Position numbers and translations under genes: made by a program | Shown: in pieces, positions 38,520 through 61,433 of the stretch | Numbering within the stretch: position 1 is the first letter of the stretch | How the letters are laid out: each line of letters begins with the position of its first letter | Source: Candidatus Algichlamydia australiensis | GTDB lineage: Bacteria > Chlamydiota > Chlamydiia > Chlamydiales > JAJFMI01 | Reading direction: 5' to 3' | NCBI GenBank assembly: GCA_033977065.1 | Contig: JAXCHI010000002.1 | Coordinates: forward strand, 320,001 to 384,000 | DNA: 64,000 bases | Notes under the pieces: model-generated | The model's input: the letters and a program-made list of their open reading frames with translations, nothing else | Database searches by the model: none | Told to the model about the DNA's origin: nothing

Positions 38520-38830
38520 GGCAGAGTGGCCAGGAAGGGTTAAAAAGCTGCTCTCTTTGATCGCAATTTTTAAATTGAGAATAGATTGGTTTTGGAGAAT
38601 GAAGTGAACTGTATCAAGTTCACGAGTTCGAAAAATCGATATAGGCCAATTTAAAAACTGTGGTCAAAAAGTCTGAGCTTTTTAGGACTTCCCGATGCGT
38701 CTGTCTTGAAAACAGAAGTGCCGCAAGGTACCGGGGGTTCGACGGCCAGCAATGCTGGACGGGGCTTTCGAGCGAAGTGAGGAAGAGCCCGAAGGGCCGG
38801 AGGGCGTAAGCCCGGAGCCAATCCCTCCTC
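38520..38830 (+). pseudogene. Interrupted duplicate of tRNA-Ser(TGA)
   Basis: D-arm fragment ggcagagtggcc (38520-38531), a 160-bp palindromic insert, then an exact copy of the anticodon and variable arms (to 38742), a 78-nt T-loop insert, and atccctcctc. A diverged copy of the tRNA promoter lies upstream. Confidence 0.85.
38533..38692. mobile_element. Palindromic RPE/MITE-like element (family 1, copy A)
   Basis: Imperfect TIRs ggaagggttaaaaagct / agctttttaggacttcc. It is a long imperfect hairpin homologous to 61284-61433. Confidence 0.75.
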
Positions 38831-38889
38831 GGTGTTATCGATAAAAAACTTTCAAAATAGCTGCTGATTAGCTATACTTTGATCTATCT

Positions 38890-38974
38890 GGAAGAGTGGC
38901 AGAGTGGCCGAATGCGTCTGTCTTGAAAACAGAAGTGCCGCAAGGTACCGGGGGTTCGAATCCCTCCTCTTCCG
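38890..38974 (+). tRNA. tRNA-Ser(TGA)
   Basis: Acceptor stem GGAAGAG/CTCTTCC-G, anticodon arm TCTGT-CTTGAAA-ACAGA, long variable arm, GGTTCGAATCC. TATACT -10 element at 38873. Confidence 0.97.
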
Positions 38975-39567
38975 AATTTATCGATACAATCTTCAATAAT
39001 AAAATTGTGATACATGCGAATTTGGGATGAGAACCCAAGGGGTTCGACGGCCAGCATTGCTGGACGGGGCTTTCGAACGAAGAGAGAAAGAGCCCGAAGG
39101 GCCGGAGGACGTAGTCCGTAGCCAATCCCTCCTCTTCCGAATTTATCGATACAATCTTCAATAATAAAATTGTGATACATGCGAATTTGGGATGAGAACC
39201 CAAGGGGTTCGACGGCCAGCATTGCTGGACGGGGCTTTCGAACGAAGAGAGAAAGAGCCCGAAGGGCCGGAGGACGTAGTCCGTAGCCAATCCCTCCTCT
39301 TCCGAATTTATCGATACAATCTTCAATAATAAAATTGTGATACATGCGAATTTGGGATGAGAACCCAAGGGGTTCGACGGCCAGCAATGCTGGACGGGGC
39401 TTTCGAACGAAGAGAGAAAGAGCCCGAAGGGCCGGAGGACGTAGTCCGTAGCCAATCCCTCCTCTTCCGAATTTATCGATACAATCTTCAATAAAACAAT
39501 TAGGATACAGGTAAGCTTGGGATGAGAACCCGTGGGTTCGACGGCCAGCATTGCTGGACGGGGCTTC
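38975..39567 (+). repeat. tRNA-linked tandem repeat, 165-bp unit, about 3.6 copies
   Basis: Units start at 38975, 39140, 39305 and 39470 (partial). Each full unit ends in the tRNA-Ser 3' end AATCCCTCCTCTTCCG. Confidence 0.95.
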
Positions 39568-39786
39568 CAAGCTTATGGGAGATCAAAAGACTGCTCACGA
39601 GATACTCATTGAGTTTTTTAGAATTTTCGGCTCGACCTATCGGTACAGCAGTTATTCAGTGCTTCCTTAAGGAAGTTATTTAAGAATTATTTATTTTTTG
39701 GTATCATTGTTGTCTAAAGGATGTTTTGTATCCTAAAAATCCATTTAATTATAGAATTATAACTATTTTTATAAAAAGGTTTTTTT

Positions 39787-40782
39787 ATGAATAAAGAGAT
39801 AAATATTGAGTTAATAGGTGTTGGAAAATACTTACCTTCAAGAAAGGTTGCAGCTTCTGGAATTGATAATACATTAAAAACGAAATTAGGCTGGTCTCTC
39901 AATGCAACAGGAGTAAAATATCGTTTCTTTTCAGATGGTGAAACTTCTTCTGAAATGGGTGCTAAAGCAATAAATGAAGCAATAAAAAACACTAATATTT
40001 CCAAATTTGATTTTGACGCACTCGTTAGCGTAGGTGGAACAACACAGCAGCCAATTCCTTGTACAGCATCATTAATTGCAGCTCAACTTGGCTTAAGAAA
40101 AGGATTGATTGCTTTTGATGTTAACGCTACTTGTTTAGGATTTCTTGTTGCACTTGATCTTTTAGCAAAACAAATTTCTCTTGGCTGTTATAACAGAGTG
40201 GCACTTGTTGCTTCTGAAATTGCTTCTGAAGGTCTAAACTGGCAGCAAAAAGAGAGTGCAGCTCTTTTTGGTGACGGCGCTGCAGCCGTTATTATTGGTC
40301 CAGGAAAAAAAGGAGGGAGCAAAATCATTGCAAGCCACTTTGAAACCTATTCTGAAGGTGTAGAGTTTTGCCAAATTCGCGGTGGTTCCGCAAAGCTACA
40401 TGCAAAGTATCACTCTAAAGAAAATAGCTCAGAATACTTGTTTGATATGCATGGCTCTAGCTTATTTAAGCTGGTCATGAAAAAATTGCCTAGTTTTCTT
40501 AAGGATCTTCTTGCGCAAGCAAATCTTGCTTTAAGTGATATTGATCTTGTAATTCCCCACCAAGCAAGTTTATCTGCTCTGACTTTGTTAAGAAAACGTC
40601 TTGGCCTTTCTGAAAAAAAATTCTTTATTAACGTTCACGAGCACGGAAATATTATTTCAGCTTCTATTCCATTAGCTTTGCATGATGCACTTAATCAAGA
40701 TCGAATTCAACGTGGTAATAAAGTTCTGCTTCTAGGTTCTTCAGCAGGAGTCTCTTTAGGAGGAGTGGTTCTTGAGTATTAG
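39787..40782 (+). CDS. 3-oxoacyl-ACP synthase III (FabH/OleA-like)
   Basis: Catalytic Cys (NATCLGF), His (PHQAS) and Asn (HGN); FGDGAAA. Confidence 0.9.
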   Translation: MNKEINIELIGVGKYLPSRKVAASGIDNTLKTKLGWSLNATGVKYRFFSDGETSSEMGAKAINEAIKNTNISKFDFDALVSVGGTTQQPIPCTASLIAAQLGLRKGLIAFDVNATCLGFLVALDLLAKQISLGCYNRVALVASEIASEGLNWQQKESAALFGDGAAAVIIGPGKKGGSKIIASHFETYSEGVEFCQIRGGSAKLHAKYHSKENSSEYLFDMHGSSLFKLVMKKLPSFLKDLLAQANLALSDIDLVIPHQASLSALTLLRKRLGLSEKKFFINVHEHGNIISASIPLALHDALNQDRIQRGNKVLLLGSSAGVSLGGVVLEY

Positions 40783-41923
40783 CAAAACCATTCTTATTAC
40801 TGGAGCTCGAGCTCCAGTTGCGTTAGACTTGGCCCGTTTGTTATCTGCAAGCGGTGCTCGGGTTATGGTTGCTGAGACGAGTAAAAAACATTTATGCCGT
40901 TTTTCAAATGCAGTAGAGAGGAGTTTTGTGGTTCCTGCTCCCATTTACAGTTCAAAACATTTTACAAATGCAATTATTGAACTTGTTAAATGCCATCAAA
41001 TTGATGTGATTGTACCAATGTGCGAAGAAGTATTCTTTTTAGCAGAAAGGCATAGTGACATTTCTTCAATTTGTACTCTTCTCTGCGATCCATTATCAAA
41101 ACTTGAGCCTCTTCATAACAAAGAGAAATTTATTAAATTATTAGAGAATATAGGCTTGCCTTTTCCTGAAACTGTTTTGTTAACATCTAAAAATGCTGTC
41201 AAATCTGCGGCTGAAAGATGGAAAAAAACAGTATTTAAACCAGTCTATTCTCGTTTTGCTCGGCAAGTAGTAATTTGTGAAGGAGAAAATACAGCTAAGG
41301 CAGAGTCTATCATCCCTACAAAAAGTCAACCATGGATCGCTCAAGAATTTATTGAAGGTAGGCGTCTTTGTTCTTATGGCTTTGCGCGTAATGGCAAGCT
41401 CTTAGCCCATGTCACCTATCCTGTAGAATATTGTGTAGGTGAAACGGGATCTGCTCTTGCTTTTAGAAGTATTGAACATTCACTATCATTTCAATTTGTC
41501 CAAAATTTAGTTAAGTTTCTTAATTTTACAGGTCAAATCAGTCTAGATTTTATCGAAAGGCATGATGGAACTCTTGTCGCAATTGAATGTAACCCACGAG
41601 CAACTAGTGGCCTGCATCTATTCAATTCATCTGACAAACTTCCTTCTGCCATGATTGAAGGTAAGCATGTCGCATATTTACCTGAAGGTCGAAAAGGACA
41701 ACTGTTAATTCCTCTGCTTTTATTGGGAGGGATAAAGTTAAAGCCTAAAAAATTATTAAATATATTTTTCTTTGGTAGAGATGTAATATTTTCCCTAAAA
41801 GATATTTTACCTGCTCTCTTCTCACCCTTGCTTCTGATCTATTACGCTTTGCAAGGATATAGAAAAAACATGACGATTACAGAGGTATCTACATATGATA
41901 TCGAATGGAATGGGGGTTTATGA
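40772..41923 (+). CDS. ATP-grasp domain protein
   Basis: Motifs ITGARAPVALDLAR, LHNKEKF, KPVYSRF, QEFIEG and IECNPRATSG. Confidence 0.85.
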   Translation: MSISKTILITGARAPVALDLARLLSASGARVMVAETSKKHLCRFSNAVERSFVVPAPIYSSKHFTNAIIELVKCHQIDVIVPMCEEVFFLAERHSDISSICTLLCDPLSKLEPLHNKEKFIKLLENIGLPFPETVLLTSKNAVKSAAERWKKTVFKPVYSRFARQVVICEGENTAKAESIIPTKSQPWIAQEFIEGRRLCSYGFARNGKLLAHVTYPVEYCVGETGSALAFRSIEHSLSFQFVQNLVKFLNFTGQISLDFIERHDGTLVAIECNPRATSGLHLFNSSDKLPSAMIEGKHVAYLPEGRKGQLLIPLLLLGGIKLKPKKLLNIFFFGRDVIFSLKDILPALFSPLLLIYYALQGYRKNMTITEVSTYDIEWNGGL

Positions 41924-42912
41924 GAGTAGCTGTCACAGGTGCAACGGGTTTTTTAGGACAACAAATTGTTGCGAAATTACTAAAGAAAAAGTGTGATGTT
42001 ATCGCTTTAGGTCGCAATAAAAAAATTGGCTCAAATCTTGGAGAAATGGGCGCAAGGTTTGTGAAAGCAGACTTAAATTCTTGGAAGGAGATGGCTTGTG
42101 CTTTTGATGGTTGTTCTGCTGTCATTCACTCTGCTGCACTCTCTTCCCCATGGGGTTCAAAAAGAGCTTTTTATGAAGCTAATGTTCTTGGAACTCGAAA
42201 TGTTTTAAGAGCAATAGAATTTTCTAATGTTCAACGAATCGTCCATATCTCAACTCCAAGCGTATATTTTGATTATACAGATCGTTTGCAGATTTCTGAA
42301 GATGAGCAATTACCGCGAAAGATGGTGAATCAATATGCTCGATCAAAGTTGGAAGCTGAAAAAATTGTTATGAAGGCTTTTGAGCAAGGGCTTGAGACAA
42401 TAATCATTAGGCCTCGCGCACTATTCGGCCCTGGCGATACAACTCTTTTTCCTCGACTAATTAAGGCAAATAATTTGATTGGTATTCCTATTACAAATCC
42501 TAAACCAATTTTGACAGACCTGACGTATGTCGAAAACGCAGCAGACGCTGCTTTGCTCTGTTTAAACGCTTCTCGAATTTGTTTGGGAAAAGCTTATAAC
42601 ATTACAGATGGGGAGCCCACTTCATTAGAAGAGCTCCTCAAAGGCCTATTTTCTTCGTTGAATGTTTTTTTTCGTAAGCGACGAGTCCCATACTCACTTG
42701 CATTTGGTTTGGCTCTTTTTTCGGAAGGAATTGGAACTTTGATTGGCAAAGAACCAAGTTTAACAAGATATGGAATAGGGGTTCTTAGTAGGAGCATGAC
42801 CCTCGATATATCACGAGCCAAAATGGAACTTGGGTACCATCCACAGGTTCGTACTCAAGAAGGGATTGCACGCTTCATATGCTGGTGGAAATCGGGTGGT
42901 GCTAATGGTTAA
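41920..42912 (+). CDS. NAD-dependent epimerase / 3-beta-HSD-like SDR (OleD-like)
   Basis: Motifs GATGFLG, HSAALSSPWG, YARSK and RPRALFGPGD. Confidence 0.9.
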   Translation: MRVAVTGATGFLGQQIVAKLLKKKCDVIALGRNKKIGSNLGEMGARFVKADLNSWKEMACAFDGCSAVIHSAALSSPWGSKRAFYEANVLGTRNVLRAIEFSNVQRIVHISTPSVYFDYTDRLQISEDEQLPRKMVNQYARSKLEAEKIVMKAFEQGLETIIIRPRALFGPGDTTLFPRLIKANNLIGIPITNPKPILTDLTYVENAADAALLCLNASRICLGKAYNITDGEPTSLEELLKGLFSSLNVFFRKRRVPYSLAFGLALFSEGIGTLIGKEPSLTRYGIGVLSRSMTLDISRAKMELGYHPQVRTQEGIARFICWWKSGGANG

Positions 42913-43726
42913 AGTTACTCTACTCAATACCGGATACTGCAGAGCTTGGGGGAAAATTGCAGTAAATTGTTGGAGCTGGCAGAGACGTTCTTTTCCTGCA
43001 ATAGTAGCTATGATAGAGCATCCAAAAGAAGGAATTATTTTATTTGATACTGGTTACAGTGAGTCATTTTTTTCTGCGACAAAGAAATTTCCTTACCGTT
43101 TTTATCGTTGGATTACACCCATATACCATAAGAATCAAGAATCGGTGAAGCATCAGCTTGAAGCTCGCGGATTTGGAGCTGACGATGTGCGCGCAATTTT
43201 TATTTCTCATTTTCATGCAGATCATCTATGTGGACTGTGTGATTTTGATAAGGCTAAGTTCTTTTGCTCAGGCACATCTGCAAGAGAAATTAAAAACCTT
43301 AGAGGAGTTTTTGCTTTGCGAAAAGGGTTCTTACCAGACCTTCTTCCTAATGACTTTTTTACTAGGACACAATATCTAGAAAATCTTCAGCTAAAAAATG
43401 TTGGGATACCCAACTCCCCATTTGAAATGGGAATTGATTTATTTCATGATCGCTCTATTGTAGCTATTTTTTTACCAGGTCACGCTCAAGGGCAGATGGG
43501 CTTACTTATTGATCAAAAAACATTTCTAATCGCAGATGCCGTGTGGAATTGTGAAGCTGTCAGAAAGAATATTCCTCCTCATAATCTGGCTCACCTTCTC
43601 CATGAGAATAAAAAAGCTTATCTTGAGACATTTAATAAACTGCATCAGCTTTCACGTTCTCATCCGGAAATACGACTTGTTCCAACGCATTGCCCGTCGG
43701 TTTTAGAAAGTAAAGGGGGAGTATGA
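42905..43726 (+). CDS. Metallo-beta-lactamase-fold hydrolase
   Basis: Motifs LFDTGY, SHFHADH, PGHAQGQ, ADA and PTHC. Confidence 0.9.
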   Translation: MVKVTLLNTGYCRAWGKIAVNCWSWQRRSFPAIVAMIEHPKEGIILFDTGYSESFFSATKKFPYRFYRWITPIYHKNQESVKHQLEARGFGADDVRAIFISHFHADHLCGLCDFDKAKFFCSGTSAREIKNLRGVFALRKGFLPDLLPNDFFTRTQYLENLQLKNVGIPNSPFEMGIDLFHDRSIVAIFLPGHAQGQMGLLIDQKTFLIADAVWNCEAVRKNIPPHNLAHLLHENKKAYLETFNKLHQLSRSHPEIRLVPTHCPSVLESKGGV

Positions 43727-45051
43727 AAACCCCAATTCTTCCATTTATTTACAGTTATTTTAATGCCTGTCGCTCTGTAAGAAGATTTCCTTCAAAAAAG
43801 GTTTTAAAATCCTGGCAGGAAAAGCAAGTGCAACGCCACTTACACTGGTTAAGAGGGCATTCTCCCTACTATGCGCAGCGGTTGAAAAGGGTAAACATTT
43901 CTGATTGGCGACAACTGGAGACAGTAAGCAAGTCTGAGATGATGGAGAATTTTGATCGGATAAACACAGCTTCATTAAAAAAAGAGAAATTATTAAATTT
44001 CGCCCTTGCCAACGAAGAGAGTAGAGACTTTGGAAAAGAGGTGGGCAGATTTACTGTTGGGCTCTCATCAGGTACATCTGGTAACAAGGGATTATTCGTT
44101 GTATCTGAAAAAGAGAGGTCTTGTTGGGCAGGATATATCTTGGCACGCATGTTACCAAGGCCTCTATGGCATAAGCAAAGAATTGCTCTTTTTTTACGCT
44201 CAGGAGGCCCCCTTTATCAAAGTACAGGTGGAGTGAGAATACAATTCCAATATTTTGATATATTTAAATCCCTTGATGAGCACTTAGACGCTTTGCAAGA
44301 GTATCAGCCTACTCTTATCGTGGGGCCACCATCTGTACTGAAATTTCTCGCTGAAAAAATTTCAGCTGATAAGCTTTTAATTAAGCCAGAGAAAATCGTT
44401 TCAGTAGCTGAAGTATTGGATCCAATTGATCAAATCCGTATTGAGAATGCCTTTGGTTTCCCGATTCATCAGGTCTATCAAGCTACTGAAGGGTGCATTG
44501 CCTCAACTTGTTCTCATGGTACCCTGCACTTACATGAGGATCTAATGTGCATTGAAAAAGAAGTAGTTGACCTATCGTTTAATCGCTTCGTACCGATTAT
44601 CACAGATTTTTCCCGCACTACTCAACCAATTGTGCGATATAGACTAGATGACATTTTAGTTGAGAAAAAGACCCCATGCCCCTGTGGATCTATATTTACC
44701 CAACTTGAAAGCATTGAGGGACGTTGTGATGATACGCTGGTATTTGAATCTAAAGATAAAAATACTTGTGTAGCGATTTACCCCGATTTTTTTAGACGAT
44801 GTGTTGCTTTTTCCTCTAACCAAATATTTGAGTATCGAATTGTCCAAACAAATTTTGACCAGCTACTAATCGAGTTTTCTTCCCTTTCTAAGGAACGAGA
44901 GAGAATAAAGAAAAAGATCTATAAAGAGTTAGTACAGCTTTTTACTCAAAAAAATGTTGCCATACCAGATATAAGCTATTCTTTATGGAAACCGCATCCA
45001 GTTCATCAAAAAATGAGGCGTGTGTTTCGGAAATTTGATATTTATGAGTGA
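43723..45051 (+). CDS. Adenylate-forming enzyme (F390-synthetase/PaaK-like)
   Basis: Motifs VGLSSGTSGNKGLF, VAEVL, YQATEG, RYRLDD and IEGRCDD. Confidence 0.88.
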   Translation: MKTPILPFIYSYFNACRSVRRFPSKKVLKSWQEKQVQRHLHWLRGHSPYYAQRLKRVNISDWRQLETVSKSEMMENFDRINTASLKKEKLLNFALANEESRDFGKEVGRFTVGLSSGTSGNKGLFVVSEKERSCWAGYILARMLPRPLWHKQRIALFLRSGGPLYQSTGGVRIQFQYFDIFKSLDEHLDALQEYQPTLIVGPPSVLKFLAEKISADKLLIKPEKIVSVAEVLDPIDQIRIENAFGFPIHQVYQATEGCIASTCSHGTLHLHEDLMCIEKEVVDLSFNRFVPIITDFSRTTQPIVRYRLDDILVEKKTPCPCGSIFTQLESIEGRCDDTLVFESKDKNTCVAIYPDFFRRCVAFSSNQIFEYRIVQTNFDQLLIEFSSLSKERERIKKKIYKELVQLFTQKNVAIPDISYSLWKPHPVHQKMRRVFRKFDIYE

Positions 45052-46192
45052 TATTCAGCTTTATTCATTTGATGAATGCAACACGATTCCATTTCCTTCT
45101 ACATATGAAGGAGAGTACGCAAGAGGATTTTTTGAAGCATTTATGAAAGAGGGGGCTAAGAAATTCATCTCAAACATTGAAACGCAAATTTATTGTCTTA
45201 AAATCGATGATCACTTTTTCCCCGTAACAGTAAATAAAGCAGAGTATGATAACTCATATGTTACTTCGCCATTTGGAATCATCAAATACGCTCAAGAAGA
45301 ATTGAAACGGTTTGACCACTGGTTTCTTACTCCTTTGTTAAAACCAATACTGAGAATAATAGGTAAATTTTTAAAAAAGGGTAAAATTAATCAAGTTGTT
45401 TCAGTCAATAATTGGCTATTGTCTACAAACCTTTATCCTCAAATAATACCAAAACAAATCAGTGAAGCTGTAGTGCTGCTTCAAAAAAGGTTCCCATCAC
45501 ATTGTATTCTCTGGCGTTCGATAAATCGAACCTATCCTCATAATTTACTAGAACACTTTAAAGAGCTACCTTGCCGCTTACTTTTTTCTAGGCAAATATA
45601 TTTTTATAATCCATTTAATAAAAACTCATTAAACTCTAAGCAAAGGTGGAATATCAAAAATGATCGTAAGTTAATCCAACTTAATGATTATGAAGTTGTA
45701 ACTGGCGATAAGATAAAAACTGAAGATATACCAAGGATAAAAGAGTTGTATGATCTACTCTACCTTAAAAAGTATACAGCACTAAATCCACAGTTTACAG
45801 AAGAGTTTATTCGTCTAGCTATAGATAAAAAACTTTTGACAATTATCGCCATTCGTAAAAATAGAAAAATTGATGGGATTATAGGGTATTTCACAAAAGA
45901 AAATGTAATGACAACACCCCTTTTAGGATATGATACCGCTTTGCCCCAAAAAGTCGGTCTTTATCGTATGCTTACTGCCATTTGTATTGATGAGGCGGAT
46001 CGTAATAGAATTTTACTCCATCATAGTTCTGGAGCCGCCCATTTTAAGAGGGTACGTGGGATGACAGCCGACCGTGAGTATACCGCAGTTTTTCATAAAC
46101 ATCTCTTTAAAAGACGCCAGATAATATGGGCTTTACTTACCTCATTTTTTAACAAAGTTGGAGAGCCAATTCTAACTCAATTTAAGCTTTAA
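45044..46192 (+). CDS. GNAT-like / unknown protein ending the operon
   Basis: Motifs VNNWLLSTNLY, YLKKYTALNPQFT, TTPLLGYD and SSGAAHFKRVRG (GNAT/FemAB-like C-terminus). Translationally coupled to the preceding gene. Confidence 0.7.
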   Translation: MSDIQLYSFDECNTIPFPSTYEGEYARGFFEAFMKEGAKKFISNIETQIYCLKIDDHFFPVTVNKAEYDNSYVTSPFGIIKYAQEELKRFDHWFLTPLLKPILRIIGKFLKKGKINQVVSVNNWLLSTNLYPQIIPKQISEAVVLLQKRFPSHCILWRSINRTYPHNLLEHFKELPCRLLFSRQIYFYNPFNKNSLNSKQRWNIKNDRKLIQLNDYEVVTGDKIKTEDIPRIKELYDLLYLKKYTALNPQFTEEFIRLAIDKKLLTIIAIRKNRKIDGIIGYFTKENVMTTPLLGYDTALPQKVGLYRMLTAICIDEADRNRILLHHSSGAAHFKRVRGMTADREYTAVFHKHLFKRRQIIWALLTSFFNKVGEPILTQFKL

Positions 46193-46239
46193 TATTATTC
46201 GCTCAAGTTGCTACCCCTTTCCTATAGAGTAACTTGAGT

Positions 46240-46455
46240 TTATTCTTCCCAGAATTCTTTATGAACGGCTACGCCTCTAGTTGAGGTAGAGTCAACAACA
46301 GCGATTTTGTGGATATGCAGGGCTTTCATAACGCCTAGGGCCAAGATAGCGTTTGATGCGTCGACGCTTGCGAAGGGATTTTTGATTTCTTCATTGCTTT
46401 TCCCAGTTGCGGTTTTGAGATATTCGCGCAGATCCTTCCTTTTGATTTCATCTCC
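46240..46455 (-). pseudogene. Start-less 71-codon gene remnant
   Basis: Open frame GDEIKRKDLREYL..DASNAILALGVMKALHIHKIAVVDSTSTRGVAVHKEFWEE-stop, bounded upstream by an in-frame TAA. A hairpin at 46202-46238 follows it. Confidence 0.45.
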
Positions 46456-46544
46456 TTAAGAAGGGGCCAATTTCAATAAATATTGTATTTAACTTATAAT
46501 TAATTACTTAAGTACTGCTCTCTAGAAAAAAATATGAAAAATCA

Positions 46545-51547: not shown

Positions 51548-54266
51548 CTATGCAAGATCTTTTTCAAATAAAAGGATTTTTTGTTCAGGATCAGCAAAGG
51601 TCGAGGTGAAGCCGCGCTTTTTGAGCATGGCAATTAGACCACTATTTTCATTGAGGACTTGCGCTTTGAGAACGTTTATTCCTTCGCGTTTTGCCATGTC
51701 GATTGTAAAGTCGAGAAGAAGGGTACCAAGGCCTTTTCCCTGGAAATCATCCGTGATGATGAGTTTGAAGAGAGCAGCGTCTGTGCCAGGCCAGCGGCTC
51801 AAGCGTGATACGGCTATGATGTTCTGATTATTCTCTGCAACAATTGCCATCTCTTGCTCGTAGTCAGCAGAGCAGATATGGATAAGGCGATTGTGTGCGG
51901 TGCGCTCTTCAAGCGAGATAAATTGGAAGTAGCGAGAGCGTACGGAGTCTTCGGAAAGTTTTCGATGAAACTCGCTCATGGCAGGCTCATCTTCCGGACG
52001 AACGGGGCGAAGTATCAGGGGTGTTTTGTCTTTGAGAGTAGCCTCTTGAATGTATTCCACAGGGTAGGGACGGATGGCAAGGTTGGAGAGTTTTTTTGAA
52101 CCGGGTGGGTGCAAAATGATGCGCGCATCTAAGGCAATAATTTCGTTTTCGTTTGCAAGAAGGGGATTGATATCACACTCTTTAATATGGGGCTGCTCAG
52201 CTATCATGCGCGAGAAGCTCACGAGAAGCGTTTCCAGATCGTTCATATTAACGCTGCCGCGCCCACGTACGCCTTGCAGTGCGGTATAAATTTTTGTCTC
52301 CTCCATCATACGGCGAGCGAGTGTAGCGTTGAGAGGAGGTAGAGCGAGTGTGGAGTCTTTAAAGACTTCAACGAGCTGGCCACCAGAACCAAAAAGGAGC
52401 ACGGGACCAAACTGTTCATCCATGGTGCTTCCTAAAATAATTTCATAGCCTTCCAGCTTTACCATGCGCTGGATAGTGACTCCTTGAAAGTGCTCGGCAC
52501 CTTTGAGTTTTGTAACGGAATTTTTGATCGAATTAAATCCGTCGATGACTTCTTGAGCATTTTTGAGATTGAGAAGTACGCCCCCAACATCTGTTTTGTG
52601 GGTAATCGTTTCAGAGTGGAGTTTGGCAACAACGGGGTAGGTAAGTTGTTCGGCTGCTTGTTTGGCTTCATCGGCAGTTTCGCAAATGATTGTTTCTACG
52701 ACAGGAATGCCGTACGCTTTTAAGAGATCTTTTGACTCCATTTCGGTCAGAAGATCGCGGCCCTCTTTGAGCGCTTGTGAAATGATTTTTTCAGGTAGCT
52801 CAGGTTTTTCTGTAATATTGTCGCGAATTGGAGGGGTTTCGTAGAGCGCTTTGAGCTCAAAAGAGTGTTTCCACATTTTTGCAAATGTTTTAGCTGCCTC
52901 ATCGGGATAGGGAAAGCAAGGGATTCCGCTCTCTTTTAGGATCTGCGCGCCTTTTTCTACGCTTTTTCCGCCCATCCAGCTGGCAAGCAGAGGCTTGCCA
53001 GGAATGTTCGCGTGAGGTTTAAGGAGTTCTGCTGTCTTCTCGGGCTCGGTCATATCTTGTGGTGAGAGCACGACGAGAAGGCCATCTGTATTGGGATCTT
53101 TTGCAACAATATTAACAGACTCGGTGTAGCGAGAAGCGTCAGCGTCGCCCAAAAGATCGACAGGGTTGCCGCGGCTCCAGGCTGCGGGCAGAAATTTATC
53201 TAGGCTGGCAAGTGTGTCTGGGTGGAGTTCGGTGAGTTCAGCACCGAACGTTGCAGCGCTATCAGTTGCGAGTACAGCGGGACCACCAGCATTTGTGAGA
53301 ATGGTCAGATTGGGACTCTTCGGCTCTGGTTGTTTCGGCCAGCACGAGTGCCATATTGAAGAGCTCTTCAATTGTATCGACGCGCATTACGCCGGCTCTT
53401 TTGAAGGCAGCATCAAGCACATCATCGCTTCCTGCCATCGAGCCTGTGTGGGAAGCCGCGGCTTGTGCAGCTACTTCTGTTCGGCCTGATTTAATCACGA
53501 CGATAGGCTTTGTAAGCGCAACGCGGCGCGCTGCTGCCAAAAAGGAGCGCGGATCACCGATCGATTCCATGTAGATTAAAATACTTTTTGTGTGGTGATC
53601 ATCTCCCAGGTAATTGATGAGGTCGCCCCACTGCACGTCTGCCATAGACCCGATCGAAACAAAGGAGCTAAAGCCAATTTTCTCCTTTAAGCTCCAATCT
53701 AAAACGGCTGTACACATGGCGCCAGACTGGCTGATGAAGGCGACATTACCGGGGTAGGCCATGTCAGCCGCAAAGGTGGCGTTGAGTCCCAAGATGGGAT
53801 TCATGACGCCAAGGCAGTTGGGGCCGATAATGCGCATGCCAGCTCTTCTTGCAATGGTGAGAACTTCTTGCTCCAGTTTTTCCCCGGGAGGGCCGAGTTC
53901 TTTGAATCCCGCAGAGATAATGATGGCTGCCGGTATTTTTTTGTCAGCGCACTCTTGCATAAGAGCTGGCACGGTTTTGGCAGGGGTGATGATGACAACT
54001 AAATCAATCTCCCCGTCCACGTTGCCAACGTTTTTATAGCATTTTATGCCTAAAACCTCTTCGCGTTTAGGGTTAATAGGCAGGATCTCTCCACCGAAGT
54101 CGGTGGTTTTTAGATTTTGCATAAGTGTACGACCTACGCTTCCTTGCTTTTCGGTCGCTCCGATAATGGCAACTCGTTTAGGGTGGAAAATTTTATCTAG
54201 GGGCTGAAGAGGCGCGCCAAGATAGTTTTGTGAAGGATCAGTATTTTTATCAATGGGGTCGTACAT
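51548..54266 (-). pseudogene. Bifunctional acyl-CoA ligase-like / GNAT acetyltransferase (Pat/YfiQ family), split by a frameshift
   Basis: N-half has GPNCLG, SQSG and HTGS; C-half has TNAGGP, NPVD, HKTDVGGV, DINPL and a GNAT FQGKGLG. One extra base near 53337-53340 separates the two frames. Confidence 0.85.
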
Positions 54267-54366
54267 ACTAATATTATTAGTATTTATTAATTAAAATATC
54301 AATTAGTTTTATCAAAAAAAATAATTACTAACCAAAATTTAAAACTTAAGTTTTAAAGTATTAGTT

Positions 54367-54460
54367 TCTTCCTCATCCATATTACTATGGGCTATGGACT
54401 CGTTGCTCGAAACACTGCTGCTTTGACTTTGGCTCGCTTTGTCCCCCTTAGCAAAATTTT
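54367..54460. repeat. Partial, diverged copy of the family 2 element
   Basis: actatgggctatggactcg..gctcgaaac.ctgctgctt..tttggctcgcttt..gcaaaatttt matches 17380-17465. Confidence 0.85.
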
Positions 54461-54567
54461 CTATTGCAAAACACTTGCTATATTCGATTGTAAATAGTTG
54501 GTCGATAGATGGTTGAAGTAAGAGGGTATCTACAAATGAACTTTCGTCGAATTTTTGGATTATTTTG

Positions 54568-54603
54568 GCCGATTTTTCGGTTGAAATGAACCAAAAAATC
54601 GGC
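54568..54603. terminator. Hairpin downstream of the esterase gene
   Basis: gccgatttttcggtt-gaaatg-aaccaaaaaatcggc. Confidence 0.5.
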
Positions 54604-54614
54604 TGAATTTTAAT

Positions 54615-55247
54615 TCAAAGACACTCTCTAAGCGAGAGAAGCTTCTCTAAAGGTTTTTCAGGAATAATATGACCTCCGTCATATTCTACCAAGGTTATAT
54701 TAGACGAAGGATTCTCTTGCATCTTTTTGTAGTAGTTTTTGGCTAGGTTATAGTGAGCTTTATCTTGTTTTCCGATTAAGAGAAAAATTGTATTTTTCTG
54801 ATTGGTCTTTTCTGGATAAATACCAGCTCCGATAACGATTAAGGGTACTTCTACTGATTTGATTTCAGCTAGCTTCAGAAGAAAAAAGCCTCCGTTTGAA
54901 AATCCGATATAACCAGAGACATTTACACCCGGAATCTGCTGCCTAATATTGGTATACGTTTCTAGTACTTCTTCCTTGGTATGATGAGGCCAACAAAGTT
55001 TGTTTTGGTACTCTGAACACCTTTTTTGAGGAGGAATAGCAATGATTCCAATGCCGAGATTTTTGCCAATTTCGTCCAAAATTTTTCGGTTACTTATTTC
55101 TGGAATTGAATTGAAACAGTCTGTTAGTCCACACAGATAAATCCAGTATTTTTTTGCATTTGGGCTCCCAAGTATAATTTCTTTATCACGTTTTTGACAG
55201 GAACAAAAACTACCGAATACAACTAAAATAATAAAAAAATGCCTCAT
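54615..55247 (-). CDS. Putative lipoprotein alpha/beta-hydrolase (esterase)
   Basis: Signal peptide with Cys; GFSNGG nucleophile elbow; IGKQD; GGH. Confidence 0.72.
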   Translation of the reverse strand: MRHFFIILVVFGSFCSCQKRDKEIILGSPNAKKYWIYLCGLTDCFNSIPEISNRKILDEIGKNLGIGIIAIPPQKRCSEYQNKLCWPHHTKEEVLETYTNIRQQIPGVNVSGYIGFSNGGFFLLKLAEIKSVEVPLIVIGAGIYPEKTNQKNTIFLLIGKQDKAHYNLAKNYYKKMQENPSSNITLVEYDGGHIIPEKPLEKLLSLRECL

Positions 55248-55333
55248 AGATATTCTTTAGGAAACGCTAGACAACTCCACCATACTCCAAACTCGTTAAG
55301 AATTCCAAAAATAGTACAACATAACGGAAATAA

Positions 55334-56470
55334 TTAAATATTAATTTTTCTGTTGCAGAGTACAAGTGTTTCGACATGAGACGTTTGAGGGAAGAGGTCG
55401 AAGGGTTGGACGGTGTTAACTGTAAAGATTTTGTTAAGTTGAGAGAGGTCCCGGGAGAGGGTAGCGGGATCACAGGAAATATAGAGAAGTTTTTTTGGCG
55501 GGTGAGTGAGGATCGTTTCAAGGACTTGTGGATGAAGACCTCCGCGTGGGGGATTAAGAAAAATTGTGTCAAAGGTTCCAAGTGTGGGAATTTTCTGTTC
55601 GAGAAGGTCACAGTGAAAGGTGACGTTTTTCATGTTATTGAGTTGAGCGTTTACGCGGGCATTTTGAATGGCTGTGCGGCCCGATTCTACGCCGATTACT
55701 TCCTGAGCGTGCTTAGCAGCAAGAAGAGTAAGGGTGCCGACACCGCAGTAGGCGTCAAGAACGCGAGAGGTAGGCGTCAAGGAAGCAAGTTTAAGAGTAT
55801 GGTTATAGAGTTGTAAGGCCTGTTTGGGATTGATTTGGAAAAAGTCTTTTGGACCGATGCGAAAGGTTAAATTATTGAGGGTTTCAGTGAGGAAAGGACG
55901 ATCGGGTTTGCCATTGCAGATGAGCATGGTTTCATCTGTTGTATGCGAGGTCCGGATGATGGCTTCACGGCAATTTTTGACTTGTGGAAGTTTTGCATCA
56001 CCGGTGGGATTGTGGATGTAGCATTTTGTAATGGGGACAGTTGTGTGAGAATGTTTTTTATGAAAACCACCCTTGTGCAGATGGATCTTATGACGGTAGT
56101 AGAGGGGATCGGGAGAAGCGATACAAGGTTCGACGGGATAGTTGATTTTTCCGATACGCGTAAGAGTCTCTTGAACGCGTTTGCTCTTCCATTTGAGTTG
56201 TTCGGGGTAAGTTAGATGCATGAGCTGGCAGCCTCCGCAGGTGCCAAATAGCGGACAGATAGGTTCTGTTCGGTGAGGAGAGGGGGTGAGAACTTTTTGA
56301 AGTTTTGCGCGAGCGAATTTTTTTTTGGATTGGATGATGGTGACTTCAACTGTTTCATCAGGAAGTGCACCATCAACAAAGACTGCTTTGCCATCAAGAA
56401 ATCCAACCCCCTCTCCTGATGAGGAGAGATCTTCTATTTTAAGAGGCGATTTCGACAAGTTTAATTTCAA
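55334..56470 (-). CDS. rlmD: 23S rRNA (uracil-5)-methyltransferase, RlmD/TrmA family
   Basis: TRAM domain, [35 protein letters not shown] and FPQTSHVE. Confidence 0.88.
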
Positions 56471-56870
56471 AAGTCAGGTCACGTCCAGCTAAAGGATGGT
56501 TGGCATCAAGTGTCACTTTATCATCACCAACTTTCGTTACTGTTACAAGCGCTTGAAAACCTTCGTCTGATTTTACTTCAAGCTGCTGGCCAACTTCAGG
56601 CGCAATATGAGGAGGAAACTGGGAGCGCTCTACCTCAGTTACGAGCTCATCTTGACGCGGCCCGTACGCCTCTTTTGACTCAATTGTTACTTTTTTACTG
56701 TCGCCAACACTCATGCCCGTTACAGCGGTTTCAAAGCCTGGAATGACATCGCCACTGCCGAGAGTAAATTCTAGAGGATCGCGATCAGCTGAACTATCAA
56801 AAACCATCCCATCAGGAAGTGTGCCTGTGTAATGAACTTTTACTTTATCACCTTGTTTTGCTTCTGCCAT
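56439..56870 (-). CDS. FKBP-type peptidyl-prolyl isomerase (SlyD/SlpA-like)
   Basis: Motifs VKVHYTG..FDSS, VIPGFE, AYG and DANHPLAG. Confidence 0.93.
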
Positions 56871-56946
56871 TTCATTCTCCGGGTAAAGGATCATTCTGCC
56901 TGGGTAACAGTTGTAAAGCAAGAGAAAAGGAGATATTCTACAAGGA

Positions 56947-57894
56947 ATGGAAAAACTACGTGTAGCTATTCTCTACGGCGGAAAATCTGCTGAGCACGAT
57001 GTCTCAATTCTATCTGCCATGCAAATATTTGAGGCGATTGATCGGGAAAAATTTGATCCTATCCCCATTTTAATTGGAAGGGATGGAAAATTTGCTATTG
57101 AAAAGTTGCTTTCTGGGATCGATGTAGTCTTTCCCGTTTTGCATGGACCATTTGGAGAAGATGGGAGTATGCAGGGATTTTTAGAGATTTTGGGGTTGCC
57201 CTATGTTGGTTGTGGCGTAGCAAGTAGTGCGATTGCTATGGATAAGGAGCTAACAAAAAAAATACTATGTAGTGAAGATTTACCTACCGCGCGCTATCTT
57301 GCTGCTAAAAGTGCAAGTTGTTTTTCATTTGACCAGGTGAAAAGAGAGTTGGGGCTCCCTTTTTTTCTTAAACCTGTTCATTTAGGCTCCTCTGTTGGAA
57401 TAGAAAAAATAGAAGAGGAGGCGCAATTTTTGCCAGCATTGCAGGCTGCGCTTGCACATGATTGCCGTGTGATTTTTGAAGAGTTTATTGAGGGAAGAGA
57501 GGTTGAGTGCGCTATTTTAGGAAATAAGAGTCCTCGCGCTTCTTTGCCAGGTGAAATTGTGCTTCCTCAAGGTGCCTACTATGATTTTTCGTTAAAGACT
57601 TCACGATCAGGTGATGTCGGCTACTCTGTTCCCGCAGATTTACAAGCGTCGATCCAAGAAGAGGTTAAGAGCATGGCAATCCGCGCTTTTCAAGCAATTG
57701 GAGGAAGGGGAATGGCGCGGGTAGATTTCTTTTTACTCCCCGACGGAAGGCTCTATGTTAATGAGATCAACCCCATCCCCGGCTTTACCAAGACCAGCCT
57801 CTACCCCCAAATGTGGGAGGCAAGCGGTTATGAATTCAAAAAAATTATTTCTGAATTAATTTATCTTGCTAATAGTCAATTAGTTAAAAATTAA
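56947..57894 (+). CDS. ddl: D-alanine--D-alanine ligase
   Basis: Motifs [29 protein letters not shown] and NEINPIPG. Confidence 0.93.
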
Positions 57895-57901
57895 TAAGAT
57901 T

Positions 57902-57930
57902 TTCACATTTTATTTATAAAATGCTATAAT
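57902..57930 (+). promoter_or_regulatory. Putative sigma70/66 promoter
   Basis: TTCACA-17 nt-TATAAT upstream of the ATG at 57954. Confidence 0.55.
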
Positions 57931-57953
57931 TATTTATATAATAACGGCATATT

Positions 57954-59408
57954 ATGAATAGAATACAAAGGGACGTATTACAGGCGTGCTTGGTCACTCT
58001 CTCTCCTCAAGGGGTAGATCGCATACGAAATAATCTCACTTTAAAAGAGCAGGAGCTGCTTCGAGGGGGGTATTTTTTTGATTTGCCTATGCGCGAAATT
58101 GATGCAGGGCGCTTTCACTCACTTCTTCTTCATTTGAGTGGGAAACCGCAAAGATTTTCTTTAATCGAGCGTATTAAGAGGATTTTTCACATAAATAATC
58201 CCGCAGCTATGAAACAATTTTATCACGATATAGAGAGCGGGAAGGTATTACCTATTGGTGAAATGACCAAATTTATGATGAGCCGGAATGGGGATCCTAA
58301 AGAGGCAAAAGTTGAGAAGGAACGTCTTATAGAGCTCTACAAAGAGATGAAGAACAATCCTGATGCTTCTGAAGAAGAAAAAAGTGCTGTTTTCCAAAAA
58401 ATTATTTTTTTCTCTCATCTAGAAGATTTTCCTCCAGCAAAAAACCTTATGGTTGAACTAAATTTTGACCTTGAGGATTCTATTGAAATTGAAGAAAACG
58501 AAGTAGAAAATTTCTTTGACGTTCGGGCGTATGAGCTAGAATTAAAAGACTTGAAAGAGAAAGAGTCGAGTGAAGATTTACAGAAGCAGTTACAAGACGC
58601 GATTAGCGAATTGAGAGGGTATAAGGACTCTTATGCCGAAAACGTTCGATCAAAGTACATAGAATTTCTACTTGAAATGCGTGCAAAGGATGCAATAGTC
58701 CCTGAACGGAGTTTGTTTTCTGAAAGAGTAAGCATGAGATCGGGCGAATGGGGAAGTTTTGTCAATCGAGTTTCTACGCGAGAAGAGAGTGTAGTCTATG
58801 CAGATGAACCTTTTGAAAGAGAAAGTAATGAAGAGGGTGAAATTGAAGGAGATCCCTTTGCAGACTTCTCTATGGATATGATTTCGGATGGAGAAGAGGA
58901 GAGATTAATTGACATCCCTCTACCTAAAAATCAAGGGCCACCTGATGAAGACCAATCTTCTATTCGCAATTCAGCGTTTGGTCTTAATCCAAATGAATTT
59001 GTAGAGTTGAATCTTGACGATCCGCCTCAAAGTCAATTTAATCACATTTTACAGTGTGTGAAAAGTGCTGTGATGAACTTTTTTGAGCGCTTCAAAAAGC
59101 GAGAAGTCTCTTTTGATCTGAGAAGACATGAAAGTCATCTTCTTGAAGAAGAGCTTGAGGCTGAAGTGAAGCAGCCAGAAAGAGCACTAACTGAATCTGA
59201 GCAAAAATGGTCTCCAATTGAAGAGACAAAAAAGCTCTTTAAAAACACGATGGATCTTGTTGGAGTATCTTTTGCTAAAAAAGAAGAGCTCGTTGTTGAT
59301 CAGAAAGAGAAGACAAAATCTCGTACCGAAACTGAGCGGCAGAGATCTTACTTAGCGAGCATAAAAGGTCTCTTTCAATCTACCTTAGCCTCTGTAGGTG
59401 GAGGGTAG
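57954..59408 (+). CDS. Acidic hypothetical protein
   Basis: 484 codons, Glu/Asp-rich, with its own promoter; no family recognised. Confidence 0.7.
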   Translation: MNRIQRDVLQACLVTLSPQGVDRIRNNLTLKEQELLRGGYFFDLPMREIDAGRFHSLLLHLSGKPQRFSLIERIKRIFHINNPAAMKQFYHDIESGKVLPIGEMTKFMMSRNGDPKEAKVEKERLIELYKEMKNNPDASEEEKSAVFQKIIFFSHLEDFPPAKNLMVELNFDLEDSIEIEENEVENFFDVRAYELELKDLKEKESSEDLQKQLQDAISELRGYKDSYAENVRSKYIEFLLEMRAKDAIVPERSLFSERVSMRSGEWGSFVNRVSTREESVVYADEPFERESNEEGEIEGDPFADFSMDMISDGEEERLIDIPLPKNQGPPDEDQSSIRNSAFGLNPNEFVELNLDDPPQSQFNHILQCVKSAVMNFFERFKKREVSFDLRRHESHLLEEELEAEVKQPERALTESEQKWSPIEETKKLFKNTMDLVGVSFAKKEELVVDQKEKTKSRTETERQRSYLASIKGLFQSTLASVGGG

Positions 59409-60597
59409 CAAATAACCCGGCAAGCGCTGCACATCCTGCTCCTACCATTAGTGGCAATCCCAATAAAAGTCCTGCAAGTTGGCCTCCAATAATTGCTGTG
59501 AAAGCCTCAGAAAAGACCATAGCAGATTGATTGAGCCCCAGCGCTTCGCCTTGTATCTCTTTTGGCGCGTTCTCAGATACACGCAGAGCTCCATAAGTGA
59601 TTCCCCATGCAATTCCAAAACTGGGAGGAATAAGCGTGACTAGAAGAGCGTAGGGCGATGCGGGAATAATTACAATAATGAGACCGATAGCAACTAAAAA
59701 AGAGGTGACAATAAAAACTCGCGAGGCAGTTAAATTTTTAAATAATCTAGCTTGGAAAAGAGGAGCTAGAGCAATCGGGATCGAGTTATAGGACATAATT
59801 TCAGCAAGCGATGAGGCGGAGTAATCGTACTTTTGAACAAGAAAGACGGGTAAGAAGCTGAAAAAGAAAAAAATCGCCATAAAGAGAAGGGTGTTGACGC
59901 CAAGAATGGGACGGAGTTGGCGGTTGCGTAGCCCTCGAAATAAAGTAGTAAAGACTTGAAAGAGTTTCAGCTCTCCTTCTCTGTTGCTGCTCGCCTTTCT
60001 TGGAAAACTTTTTAAAATATAAAAAAATGTAAAAAAGCTTACGACCGCTGCTACCCAAAAAGGAGTCGCATAAGTAAAGGAGCTGACAAGGTTGGGGTCG
60101 GACAGTTTTCCTCCCATGAAAGGGCCAATTACCCATGCGAGTGAAGAGAGGGACATAGTCCAGCTAAAGCATTTGCGCTTCTCCGCTTCAGAAGTGGCAA
60201 TGTCTGCTAAAGTTGCTTGTGCAATAACAATATTTCCTTCTACGAGTCCACTTAAAAATCGAGAGAGAAAGAGTAGAAAAGGGAGAGAGTGGGTAACGGA
60301 GATAGCAGAGCCGACATAGGCTGGAATGATAGCAGCAAGCGAGTAGAGCAGTACTCGTTTACGCCCAAAATAATCGGAGAGTTTCCCGATAAGAGGACAA
60401 CCTATCAGTTGCCCTATGGGATACATACTAAGCAGAAGACCCAAATAAATATTTCGAATTTCAGGGGATAAAGAGCCGACAAAAAAAATTGAATCCTCTT
60501 CTAAAAAAAGGGGAGGAAAAATGGGAAAGGTAATAGAGAAGCCGAGATAGCCTAGAAAGACTACTGTTGATATAGGGAGGATTTCCTTGAATTTCAT
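59380..60597 (-). CDS. MFS transporter (TetA/DHA1-like)
   Basis: MFS motif A GKLSDYFGRKRVL; about 12 TM segments. Confidence 0.92.
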   Translation of the reverse strand: MKFKEILPISTVVFLGYLGFSITFPIFPPLFLEEDSIFFVGSLSPEIRNIYLGLLLSMYPIGQLIGCPLIGKLSDYFGRKRVLLYSLAAIIPAYVGSAISVTHSLPFLLFLSRFLSGLVEGNIVIAQATLADIATSEAEKRKCFSWTMSLSSLAWVIGPFMGGKLSDPNLVSSFTYATPFWVAAVVSFFTFFYILKSFPRKASSNREGELKLFQVFTTLFRGLRNRQLRPILGVNTLLFMAIFFFFSFLPVFLVQKYDYSASSLAEIMSYNSIPIALAPLFQARLFKNLTASRVFIVTSFLVAIGLIIVIIPASPYALLVTLIPPSFGIAWGITYGALRVSENAPKEIQGEALGLNQSAMVFSEAFTAIIGGQLAGLLLGLPLMVGAGCAALAGLFATLHLQRLR

Positions 60598-60644
60598 ACG
60601 GCCTACCATTATACTAAAGATGAAGAATTTTTGCTGGATCTCTT

Positions 60645-61085
60645 ATGACAACATCTACAACAATTGACAATCTGCCCAAAACCGAGCATCTGCGATATGC
60701 AGAAGAGCAGATTGAATTTGATCCTAAGTTTATTCAAGAAGCTTTTATTGGAGGCTTAGCAGCCGCTCCTGAGATTACCAATGGGTATAAACCTCTTTTG
60801 GATCTGTTGCTTGGATTTCATAAGACAAATGCTCCTTTTGCACACTTTGCCGAGCCGCCCGTTTTACGTAAGCGGAAAAAACACAGGCGTAAACTCTTTT
60901 CTCGTAGAGGAATTTTAGCTGATATCGATAGTGAGGATCTCCCTGAAGATATGGAGGGGTTTGAGCTCTCTGATGGTTCAACCCGAGATAGGGAGCTTTT
61001 GGAGGCTTTTTTAAAAGATTTGCGGTACATAGATGCGCTGGTATTGGAGGCCTATGGTAAGATAGACCGCCTCCAAATGGGGTGA
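60645..61085 (+). CDS. Hypothetical protein, possibly DUF5399/CT273-like
   Basis: TIDNL..RYA, FAHFAEPP and a C-terminal helix ending QMG recall a chlamydia-specific family. This is from memory and unverified. Confidence 0.5.
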   Translation: MTTSTTIDNLPKTEHLRYAEEQIEFDPKFIQEAFIGGLAAAPEITNGYKPLLDLLLGFHKTNAPFAHFAEPPVLRKRKKHRRKLFSRRGILADIDSEDLPEDMEGFELSDGSTRDRELLEAFLKDLRYIDALVLEAYGKIDRLQMG

Positions 61086-61113
61086 GGTGCAAATTTCCAG
61101 GGCTAAAGTTTTT

Positions 61114-61268
61114 CGGCTCCATCTCGCTGCGCCAAATCGCAATTCAGCCGCCAAGCCGTGTTAGTTCACACTTTCATGGCGGCTGAATTGCGATTTTGCT
61201 TTGCGAGATAAAGCCGCTAGGCCGCTTCGCGCATCATTAGATTTTTTATGAAAAAACCGTGAACTAAC
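61114..61268. ncRNA. Candidate structured RNA/DNA element with pseudoknot potential
   Basis: Perfect 20-bp stem 61134-61153/61177-61196. Its loop GTTAGTTCAC is complementary to GTGAACTAAC at 61259-61268. Confidence 0.45.
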
Positions 61269-61283
61269 TTTGACGCATAAGGA

Positions 61284-61433
61284 GTCGCTGAACAGCTGCT
61301 CTTTTCGATAAAATATCAAAAATTGAGAAAAAATTTTTTTTGGAGAACGGAGCTAGCTTAGCAAAAGCTAGCGAGTTCGAAAAAGAAATTTGAGCCAATT
61401 TTTGGTGTTTTAGTGGAAAGTCTGATCAGTGAC
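61284..61433. mobile_element. Palindromic RPE/MITE-like element (family 1, copy B)
   Basis: Shares six conserved motifs with 38533-38692 and has covarying stems. Confidence 0.7.

Follow-up and report, generated by a model that had tools for sequence, protein, structure and literature searches.

The window analysed here, a 64,000-nucleotide stretch of the Candidatus Algichlamydia australiensis genome (contig JAXCHI010000002.1, positions 320,001 to 384,000; G000:C2:320001-384000 in our notation), holds two palindromic sequences that resemble each other and raise the question of what they are and how they came to be there. A first-pass annotation had described them as copies of a structure-defined mobile RNA or single-stranded DNA (ssDNA) element. 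We propose instead, with a probability of roughly 60%, that both belong to a superfamily of approximately 161-bp miniature inverted-repeat transposable elements (MITEs) of environmental chlamydiae, moved in trans by a DDE transposase, for which the IS5 family is the best candidate, and carrying a conserved folded core. The genome under study, G000, comprises 1.80 Mb on seven contigs and is 93.4% complete.

Two copies of a rod-shaped element

We described the elements with two covariance models: R1, built from 20 full-length copies and used at a threshold of E<=0.01, and R2, a model of the apical core only. The window contains two full-length copies, A and B, and one truncated left half of sub-family 2, with the following features (window positions).

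38533..38692, + strand: copy A, family 1, full-length (160 bp), the most diverged member; nhmmer 76.4 bits, R1 145.3 bits
38533..38552, + strand: left terminal inverted repeat (TIR) of copy A, diverged, GGAAGGGTTAAAAAGCTGCT; from the family alignment
38583..38641, + strand: apical core module of copy A; R2 match G000:C2:358583-358641, 65.0 bits
38673..38692, + strand: right TIR of copy A; from the family alignment
61281..61441, + strand: copy B, family 1, full-length, right terminus degenerate, located between convergent genes; R1 138.7 bits
61281..61300, + strand: left TIR of copy B, GGAGTCGCTGAACAGCTGCT, with TAA just before it; from the sequence and the family alignment
61331..61390, + strand: apical core module of copy B; R2 match G000:C2:381331-381390, 70.5 bits
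39606..39666, - strand: truncated family-2 left half with the same terminus and the flank TTAA; inner boundary approximate; abuts a tRNA-linked tandem array

The pairwise alignment of copies A and B had a mean column identity of 77%. All six motifs that the first-pass annotation had listed as shared in the same order fell inside conserved alignment blocks, and the stems that it named as different in sequence did pair in the folds of both copies. Its limits were exact for copy A (38533-38692) and slightly narrow for copy B (61284-61433), which the family alignment extends to 61281-61441.

Each copy folded into a single long rod. The + strand of copy A reached -63.2 kcal/mol, compared with -31.4 +/- 3.3 kcal/mol for 200 dinucleotide shuffles (z -9.53), and that of copy B reached -62.5 kcal/mol, compared with -34.2 +/- 3.2 kcal/mol (200 shuffles; z -8.79). 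None of the 200 shuffles folded as well in either case.

The elements form a dispersed family with covarying stems

An iterated nhmmer profile search of G000, supplemented with blastn, yielded 44 non-overlapping hits at E<=1, 24 of which scored above 70 bits. R1 produced 61 matches that collapse to 41 loci, and it also found homologs in other chlamydiae. R2 identified 42 loci in G000, each matched on one strand only. The copies are spread over four contigs (C2, C3, C4 and C7). When the 24 strong copies were aligned with their flanks, the element measured 160-162 bp. Among the R1 loci there was a second sub-family, whose termini and 161-bp length are identical to those of the first while its stems are quite different. 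No open reading frame (ORF) was common to the family, and ORFs running into an element end stopped within 11-15 nt. The element is thus non-coding and, at less than 300 bp, within the size range of MITEs.

Covariation extended over the full rod. In the 20-copy alignment, 91.7% of the cells formed standard pairs (84.3 +/- 0.5% after shuffling), and both sides had changed in 33 of the 59 pairs where 16.2 +/- 2.3 were expected, a count that none of 500 shuffles reached. Sliding the partners by 1-3 columns as a control left only 9-19 pairs with two-sided changes. Several pairs, such as columns 36/130, 37/129 and 58/109, occurred as four to six standard pair types, and the termini covaried as well, with nine of the 17 pairs of helix 1 changed on both sides. 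Part of this covariation reflects sub-family structure, since shuffling ignores relatedness. The conserved loops and covarying stems of the first-pass annotation were nevertheless significant both within this genome and across genomes, and more strongly so than its reader could have seen.

The family matched no Rfam entry. Searching the window against Rfam returned only two tRNAs, and four copies of the element reached no gathering threshold in Rfam 15; at E<=1 they hit only plant miRNA-precursor hairpins, far below threshold (e.g. 43.6 against 139.7 bits). A full-text literature search found no paper describing the chlamydial elements.

Termini, target duplications and insertion sites

The ends of the element in G000 read GGAGAYACTGAAYAAC...GTTGTTCAGTRTCTCC and pair with each other in most of the 24 copies. 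The same TIRs were also found in elements of other genomes. Identical 4-bp flanks bordered nine of 32 full-length G000 elements (TTTA twice; TTAA, CTAA, TAAA, AAAA, TGTA, GTAA and AGTA once each), compared with 2.1% in a control that paired each left flank with the right flank of another copy, and six further elements matched at three of the four positions. Among elements fetched from other records by their terminus pattern and read by eye, 10 of 16 had identical 4-bp flanks, seven of which were TTAA. The 12-nt near-direct repeats reported around copy B are present, but they are not the usual target duplication of the family: the left one is made up of flanking sequence and the element's first two bases, the right one of a degenerate right end and flanking sequence.

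Insertion sites appear to be A/T-rich and often consist of TTAA, or contain TAA, at a gene end. By crude ORF calls, family-1 copies were mostly intergenic, with one of 24 inside an ORF; the copy at C3:343038-343198 splits an ORF. The site of copy A can be compared with its own paralog in the window.

38520..38834, + strand: tRNA-Ser(TGA) pseudogene hosting copy A, the 'filled site'; not called by ARAGORN or Rfam
38889..38975, + strand: intact tRNA-Ser(TGA), the paralogous 'empty site'; from the tRNA search

Copy A had been said to split a tRNA pseudogene, and we found it in the D-loop of this one, which also lacks its first 8 nt and carries a 77-nt GC-rich insert in the T-loop. The intact paralog lies 200 bp downstream and has promoter-like upstream sequence in common with the pseudogene. 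This arrangement supports mobility. Because the pseudogene is old and altered elsewhere too, the duplication around copy A is no longer readable. A second comparison involved the same-genus sister species (genome G409), where an intergenic site contains approximately 330 bp of element DNA; in G000 this site is empty and consists of a short spacer (C3:~670228-670280). At the orthologous site of copy B in G409, the flanking genes are on two contigs that both end at the spacer.

Terminal inverted repeats, a target duplication of fixed length and dispersed copies with presence/absence polymorphism are the features by which MITEs are recognized, and all were found here. Inverted ends combined with duplications of fixed length and variable sequence are the signature of a DDE transposase acting on double-stranded DNA. 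Since the elements have both TIRs and variable 4-bp duplications, we infer DDE cut-and-paste transposition. The repeat family and the mobility proposed in the first-pass annotation are therefore retained, whereas the RNA or ssDNA intermediate is not: the family is mobile and conserves its structure, and its anatomy points to DDE-type transposition rather than to an RNA or ssDNA route.

Several other arrangements were seen at or near element loci. Tandem arrays follow both tRNA-Ser genes examined, tRNA-Ser(TGA) (window 38959-39566) and tRNA-Ser(GCT) (C3:~249684-250452), with periods of 165 and 170 bp, 3.7 and 4.5 copies and 96-97% identity. The array unit begins with the tRNA 3' end from the T-loop on and ends with the 5' half of the T-arm and a GC-rich insert of approximately 77 nt, the same insert that the host pseudogene of copy A carries in its T-loop. 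The arrays may have arisen as successive site-specific integration events targeted the tRNA 3' end. Copy B has as its immediate upstream neighbor (window ~61107-61235) a member of a second, GC-richer hairpin repeat family, for which blastn returned at least 20 hits in G000 and which occupies at least 28 places in G409; this makes the copy B spacer a cluster of adjacent MITEs. Next to each of the copies at C3:261460-261620 and C3:264183-264325 lies a duplicated piece from the 3' end of an iron-sulfur subunit-like ORF; the two copies represent one insertion, multiplied by segmental duplication. At C4:178234-179721, two inverted family-1 copies bracket a 427-aa ORF and look like a composite transposon. 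We rejected this interpretation, since the ORF is not a transposase and resembles a choline-phosphotransferase family only weakly, below threshold. Finally, record JAFEGJ01, a metagenome-assembled genome (MAG) labelled Verrucomicrobia, contains 165-bp and 60-bp elements with the same 20-nt terminus; either exchange between members of the PVC group or a fault in binning or labelling could explain this.

The apical core is conserved in structure

The tip of the rod contains a core module that, in copy A, reads in order UUGGA, a 4-bp helix, a G-rich loop, a hairpin, GA, a second 4-bp segment of helix and GAAAA. An alignment of 31 cores, each 60 nt long, drew on G000, 16 further genomes and one named MAG. 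Over three helices, 87.6% of the cells were paired, compared with 68.5% after shuffling. Both sides had changed at 21 of the 22 pairs (9-14 pairs in slid controls), and there were 148 cells with two-sided changes where 46.8 were expected, a number that was reached in 0 of 500 shuffles.

The unpaired positions were close to invariant: G13 was present in 31 of the 31 cores, G14 in 29, A15 in 31, G20 in 31, A46 in 30, G51 in 27 and A52 in 30. These purines flank the 4-bp helix, with GGA opposite GA on one side and G-A-N opposite G-A on the other. The helix itself varies with compensation (GAUC/GAUC, GAAC/GUUC, GACC/GGUC, GGAU/AUCC), which excludes two identical double-stranded protein sites as the cause of the apparent direct repeat. 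Above the core helix, the hairpin is closed by a conserved AAC...GUU. As a structural model, the purines could form tandem G.A pairs on either side of the helix, with one bulged base each.

Rod length was 155-169 nt at 23 of the 42 core loci in G000, with a mode of 160-164 nt; the other loci were truncated or extended by chance into their flanks. At C4:257880-258041, both ends had changed in concert.

We compared the core with known motifs, judging each by its generally known features only. A kink-turn does not fit in bulge length and register, and the AAC/GTT boxes are at the apex here rather than at the base as in an integron attC site. CsrA-type GGA sites usually number one per element. No U-run follows the hairpin on either strand, as it would in an intrinsic terminator, and no internal promoter was evident.

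Distribution across chlamydiae

Of 150 other genomes of the order, 18 had full-length R1 matches, in which the same central sequence sits in rods of approximately 147-165 nt. At the level of the phylum, the core model R2 had matches in 27 of 150 other genomes, with up to 32 seen per genome; these per-genome counts are floors, since 36 candidates were scored per genome. By taxonomic family, R2 matched 12 of 17 genomes in f9, four of 14 in f3, five of 22 in f10 and none of 27 in f4, whose genomes measure 1.0-1.2 Mb. Element copies were not at conserved orthologous sites. The terminus GGAGAY...CTGAA was kept across several genomes and in two sub-families whose stems differ, which implies sequence-specific recognition of the ends.

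Strand asymmetry

The two strands of the element are not equivalent in folding. The strand with the purine loops (+) was the more stable one in 20 of 24 G000 copies, with a mean advantage of 13.5 kcal/mol. In other genomes, this was true of all 16 elements fetched by pattern and of 17 of the 18 fetched by model. G:U cells outnumbered A:C cells by 87 to 24 within the family and by 44 to 14 in the cross-genome core. This asymmetry indicates selection on one single strand and is compatible with either RNA or extruded DNA.

At 29 of 41 G000 loci, the better-folding strand was also the one locally rich in C (negative GC skew), a figure that comes from several tests tried and is uncorrected. Gene orientation in G000 has almost no replication bias (e.g. 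137 vs 134 genes on C2).

Search for a mobilizing enzyme

Three types of insertion sequence (IS) could be defined in G000. The best likeness to the elements came from an intact IS5-family transposase on the plasmid contig (G000:C1:79720-80967), which scored 496.7 bits against NF033578 (cut-off 275). This IS has the ends AGTCGACCCTGAAAAATTC and the duplication ATGT on both sides. Aligned by eye in the register of a shared CTGAA, its ends match those of the elements at 12 of 18 positions. The ends of Escherichia coli IS5A (GGAAGGTGCGAATAAG and ...GAACAAG) are as in the element at nine of 16 positions, and the T/C difference between left and right ends is the same in both. Relatives of the C1-type IS occurred in 24 of 400 other chlamydial genomes sampled and, where readable, had TAGTCGnCCCTGA ends and 4-bp duplications (AAAT, AGCT). 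A duplication length of 4 bp is thus common to the elements (TTAA, TTTA, CTAA, GTAA and others) and IS5-type ISs. The IS5 family is therefore the best-supported candidate source of the elements.

Other candidates were rejected. The IS903-like IS (C2:397645-398754 and C3:388891-390000) has 9-bp duplications and different ends. A decayed IS5_3-type (IS427-like) element at C2:~414.9-415.8 kb was considered for a resemblance at its right end, which failed; the ends of its intact relatives, (C)TAGATAGTGTCGTCAAGAAA, differ. An IS630/Tc1-type transposase was dismissed as a partner, as PF13358 (DDE_3) had no match in G000. The apical core motif was absent from all IS elements examined.

Enzymes of single-strand and RNA routes were sought in the same 93.4% complete genome. 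Y1_Tnp (PF01797) had no match there, although control genomes did match, nor did the RVT_1 reverse transcriptase (PF00078). The presence of duplications and the lack of a Y1 transposase match set the elements apart from IS200/IS605 and REP/RAYT systems, and the lack of a PF00078 match in G000 sets them apart from retro-elements (retron, group II intron or SINE-like).

The C1 IS5-family element (C1:78.8-80.4 kb) interrupts a nuclease-like ORF. A long run of G immediately precedes its left end, and a run of C closely follows the transposase stop codon within its right part; both may be artefacts of assembly or polishing. The IS5_3-type transposase gene (C2:~414900-415050) is interrupted at its 3' end by a third small palindromic element, with GAACCTATCCAACTAAA ends, which is also nested within a sub-family-2 element (C3:186273-186595).

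Origin and spread of the elements

In the scheme we favor, a DDE transposase supplied in trans would bind the TIRs of approximately 16-20 bp (GGAGAYACTGAAYAAC in G000) and direct its insertion into A/T-rich targets, frequently TTAA or a sequence containing TAA at the end of a gene, where 4 bp would be duplicated. As an imperfect palindrome over its full length, the element can fold into the rod on both strands. The core module would act while the element is single-stranded, likeliest in a read-through transcript and less likely as an extruded cruciform, and its putative role is probably tied to that state. It may serve there as a binding or processing site that aids spread or makes insertions tolerable.

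Several observations weigh against this reading. Ordinary MITEs keep their ends while the interior drifts; at depth, the chlamydial elements keep the interior while the ends vary. Within G000, the same core sits in rods of approximately 161 nt with at least five unrelated-looking termini, and other genomes add further ones, such as TACCnnnnCC flanked by TA or TAA. To accommodate these varied termini, a classical MITE model has to invoke repeated capture or several transposases. In addition, we found no autonomous element with the same termini in G000, where TIR pairs occurred only at MITE spacing or between neighboring MITEs. Nor did a parent IS turn up among the 29 loci that a TIR pattern retrieved from all species genomes. 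G121, the genome richest in TIR matches (132, compared with 0 for a reversed-pattern control), had no evident parent among the 100 listed of these 132 matches. These negatives rest on incomplete assemblies and do not establish that a partner is absent. The C1-type IS5 transposase was not found in five element-rich genomes, and its IS is identical to the element at just the 12 of 18 terminal positions given above. The strand signals are also mixed. Among singleton changes, G:U (21) barely exceeded A:C (16), a small excess suggesting that much of the asymmetry is carried by successful lineages (master copies) and not made anew in each copy. In unidirectional contexts, judged by crude ORF calls, 14 copies were co-oriented and four anti-oriented with respect to genes in G000, while the counts elsewhere were 11 and 10.

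Could the fold itself be what is mobilized? A mobilizer might read the folded single strand, ssDNA or RNA, through the core and cut at a fixed distance from it, so that the TIRs would be no more than the drifting base of a stem. Such a mechanism would account for the constancy of rod length over unrelated termini (mode 160-164 nt in G000, 147-165 nt elsewhere), for one core with at least five terminus types in G000 and more elsewhere, and for the strand specificity and invariant unpaired purines of the core. The covariation of the termini in helix 1 (9/17 pairs) and the joint change of both ends at C4:257880-258041 would follow as well, and so would the failure to find a matching parent IS in G000 and the 29 fetched loci, or its transposase in the five element-rich genomes. 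We nevertheless consider it unlikely. Duplications of fixed 4-bp length and variable sequence together with IS5-like termini are products of DDE enzymes on double-stranded DNA, single-strand transposons such as IS200/IS605 and REP/RAYT make no duplications, and neither a Y1_Tnp nor an RVT_1 gene was found in G000. The conservation of GGAGAY...CTGAA over genomes and in two sub-families with different stems also argues for recognition of the ends by sequence. A broader version of this idea, which we offer as a doubtful proposal, is that these are phylum-specific rods of approximately 161 nt whose defining and selected feature would be, instead of the transposon ends, a strand-specific apical motif at a fixed distance from them, made of purine loops with potential tandem G.A pairs around the covarying 4-bp helix and of the AAC/GUU hairpin. 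The rods would be read and perhaps mobilized or processed as a folded single strand by a putative factor, with interchangeable end sequences.

Alternatively, the elements may persist mainly through a role for the host, with folded + strand RNA co-opted, for instance, to determine processing or stability or to bind a protein in 3' or 5' untranslated regions, and with mobility as mere delivery. The deep conservation of the core with covariation and the excess of G:U over A:C agree with this, as do the mostly intergenic positions, with an ORF end within 1 nt for seven of 24 copies (crude ORF calls), and the 14 co-oriented against four anti-oriented copies in G000. However, the other genomes had no such orientation bias (11 vs 10), copies also occur in divergent promoter regions and inside a pseudogene, they are not kept at orthologous sites, and no Rfam family matches them. 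We regard a host-level RNA module as quite improbable. That the two loci are A/T-rich hairpins alike by chance, or an assembly artefact, has a negligible probability given dozens of copies on four contigs (C2, C3, C4 and C7), homologs in many independent genomes and shuffles that never folded as well as either copy (0/200). The reading as MITEs, probably moved by a DDE transposase, accounts best for the ends and duplications.

Significance and comparison with known systems

Published chlamydial genome surveys, in the sections accessible to us, cover larger repeats or transposases only (PMC2878342, PMC11317633): the Waddlia genome paper counted only repeats above 200 bp (PMC2878342), and the accessible text on the G000 genome mentions 11 transposases and no small repeats (PMC11317633). 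The Cardinium MITE is, from the part of its description available, an unrelated IS982 derivative (PMC9769881). The elements described here number tens of copies per genome in many environmental chlamydiae. They shape intergenic regions, have disrupted genes and one copy of a tRNA, and at the one draft locus examined (G409) they fall at contig ends. A MITE family that keeps a structured, strand-specific core and a fixed length despite different termini is unusual, and its core might lead to a factor, of the host or a transposase, that recognizes folded nucleic acid. The R1 and R2 covariance models offer a ready means to annotate the family.

Like IS5-derived bacterial MITEs, the chlamydial elements are small, non-coding, dispersed and mostly intergenic, with 4-bp A/T-rich duplications, and their TIRs start with GGA and contain GAAYAA, as those of IS5A do. 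Unlike IS5-derived MITEs, they have no parent IS with the same ends among those we searched, their interior is a full-length palindrome with a conserved apical module and no IS remnant, and one module is combined with unrelated termini.

The remaining comparisons draw on general descriptions of the known families only. Rickettsia palindromic elements are known for in-frame insertion into protein genes. They too are rod-like palindromic repeats of an obligate intracellular bacterium; the chlamydial elements differ in having clear terminal repeats and 4-bp duplications, and one of 24 family-1 copies is inside an ORF. Correia elements (CREE/NEMIS) of Neisseria are MITEs of approximately 100-160 bp with inverted ends that lie between genes and are co-transcribed as hairpins, and a central factor-binding site has been reported for them. 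Their duplication is reported as TA and their pairing involves mainly the terminal repeats; to our knowledge, they are confined to Neisseria. The chlamydial elements share their size, inverted ends and hairpins but differ by a 4-bp duplication and a full-length covarying rod. ERIC/IRU sequences of enterobacteria are imperfect palindromes that cross genera and fold in transcripts, with reported orientation-dependent effects on mRNA, and we know of no report of many alternative termini around one ERIC core. They resemble the chlamydial elements as similar-sized imperfect palindromes kept across genera, while sequence, host phylum and length differ. The chlamydial elements can be classed with the bacterial MITEs of the Correia/ERIC type but stand apart from these families in their deeply conserved, strand-specific structured core, their fixed length and their several kinds of ends.

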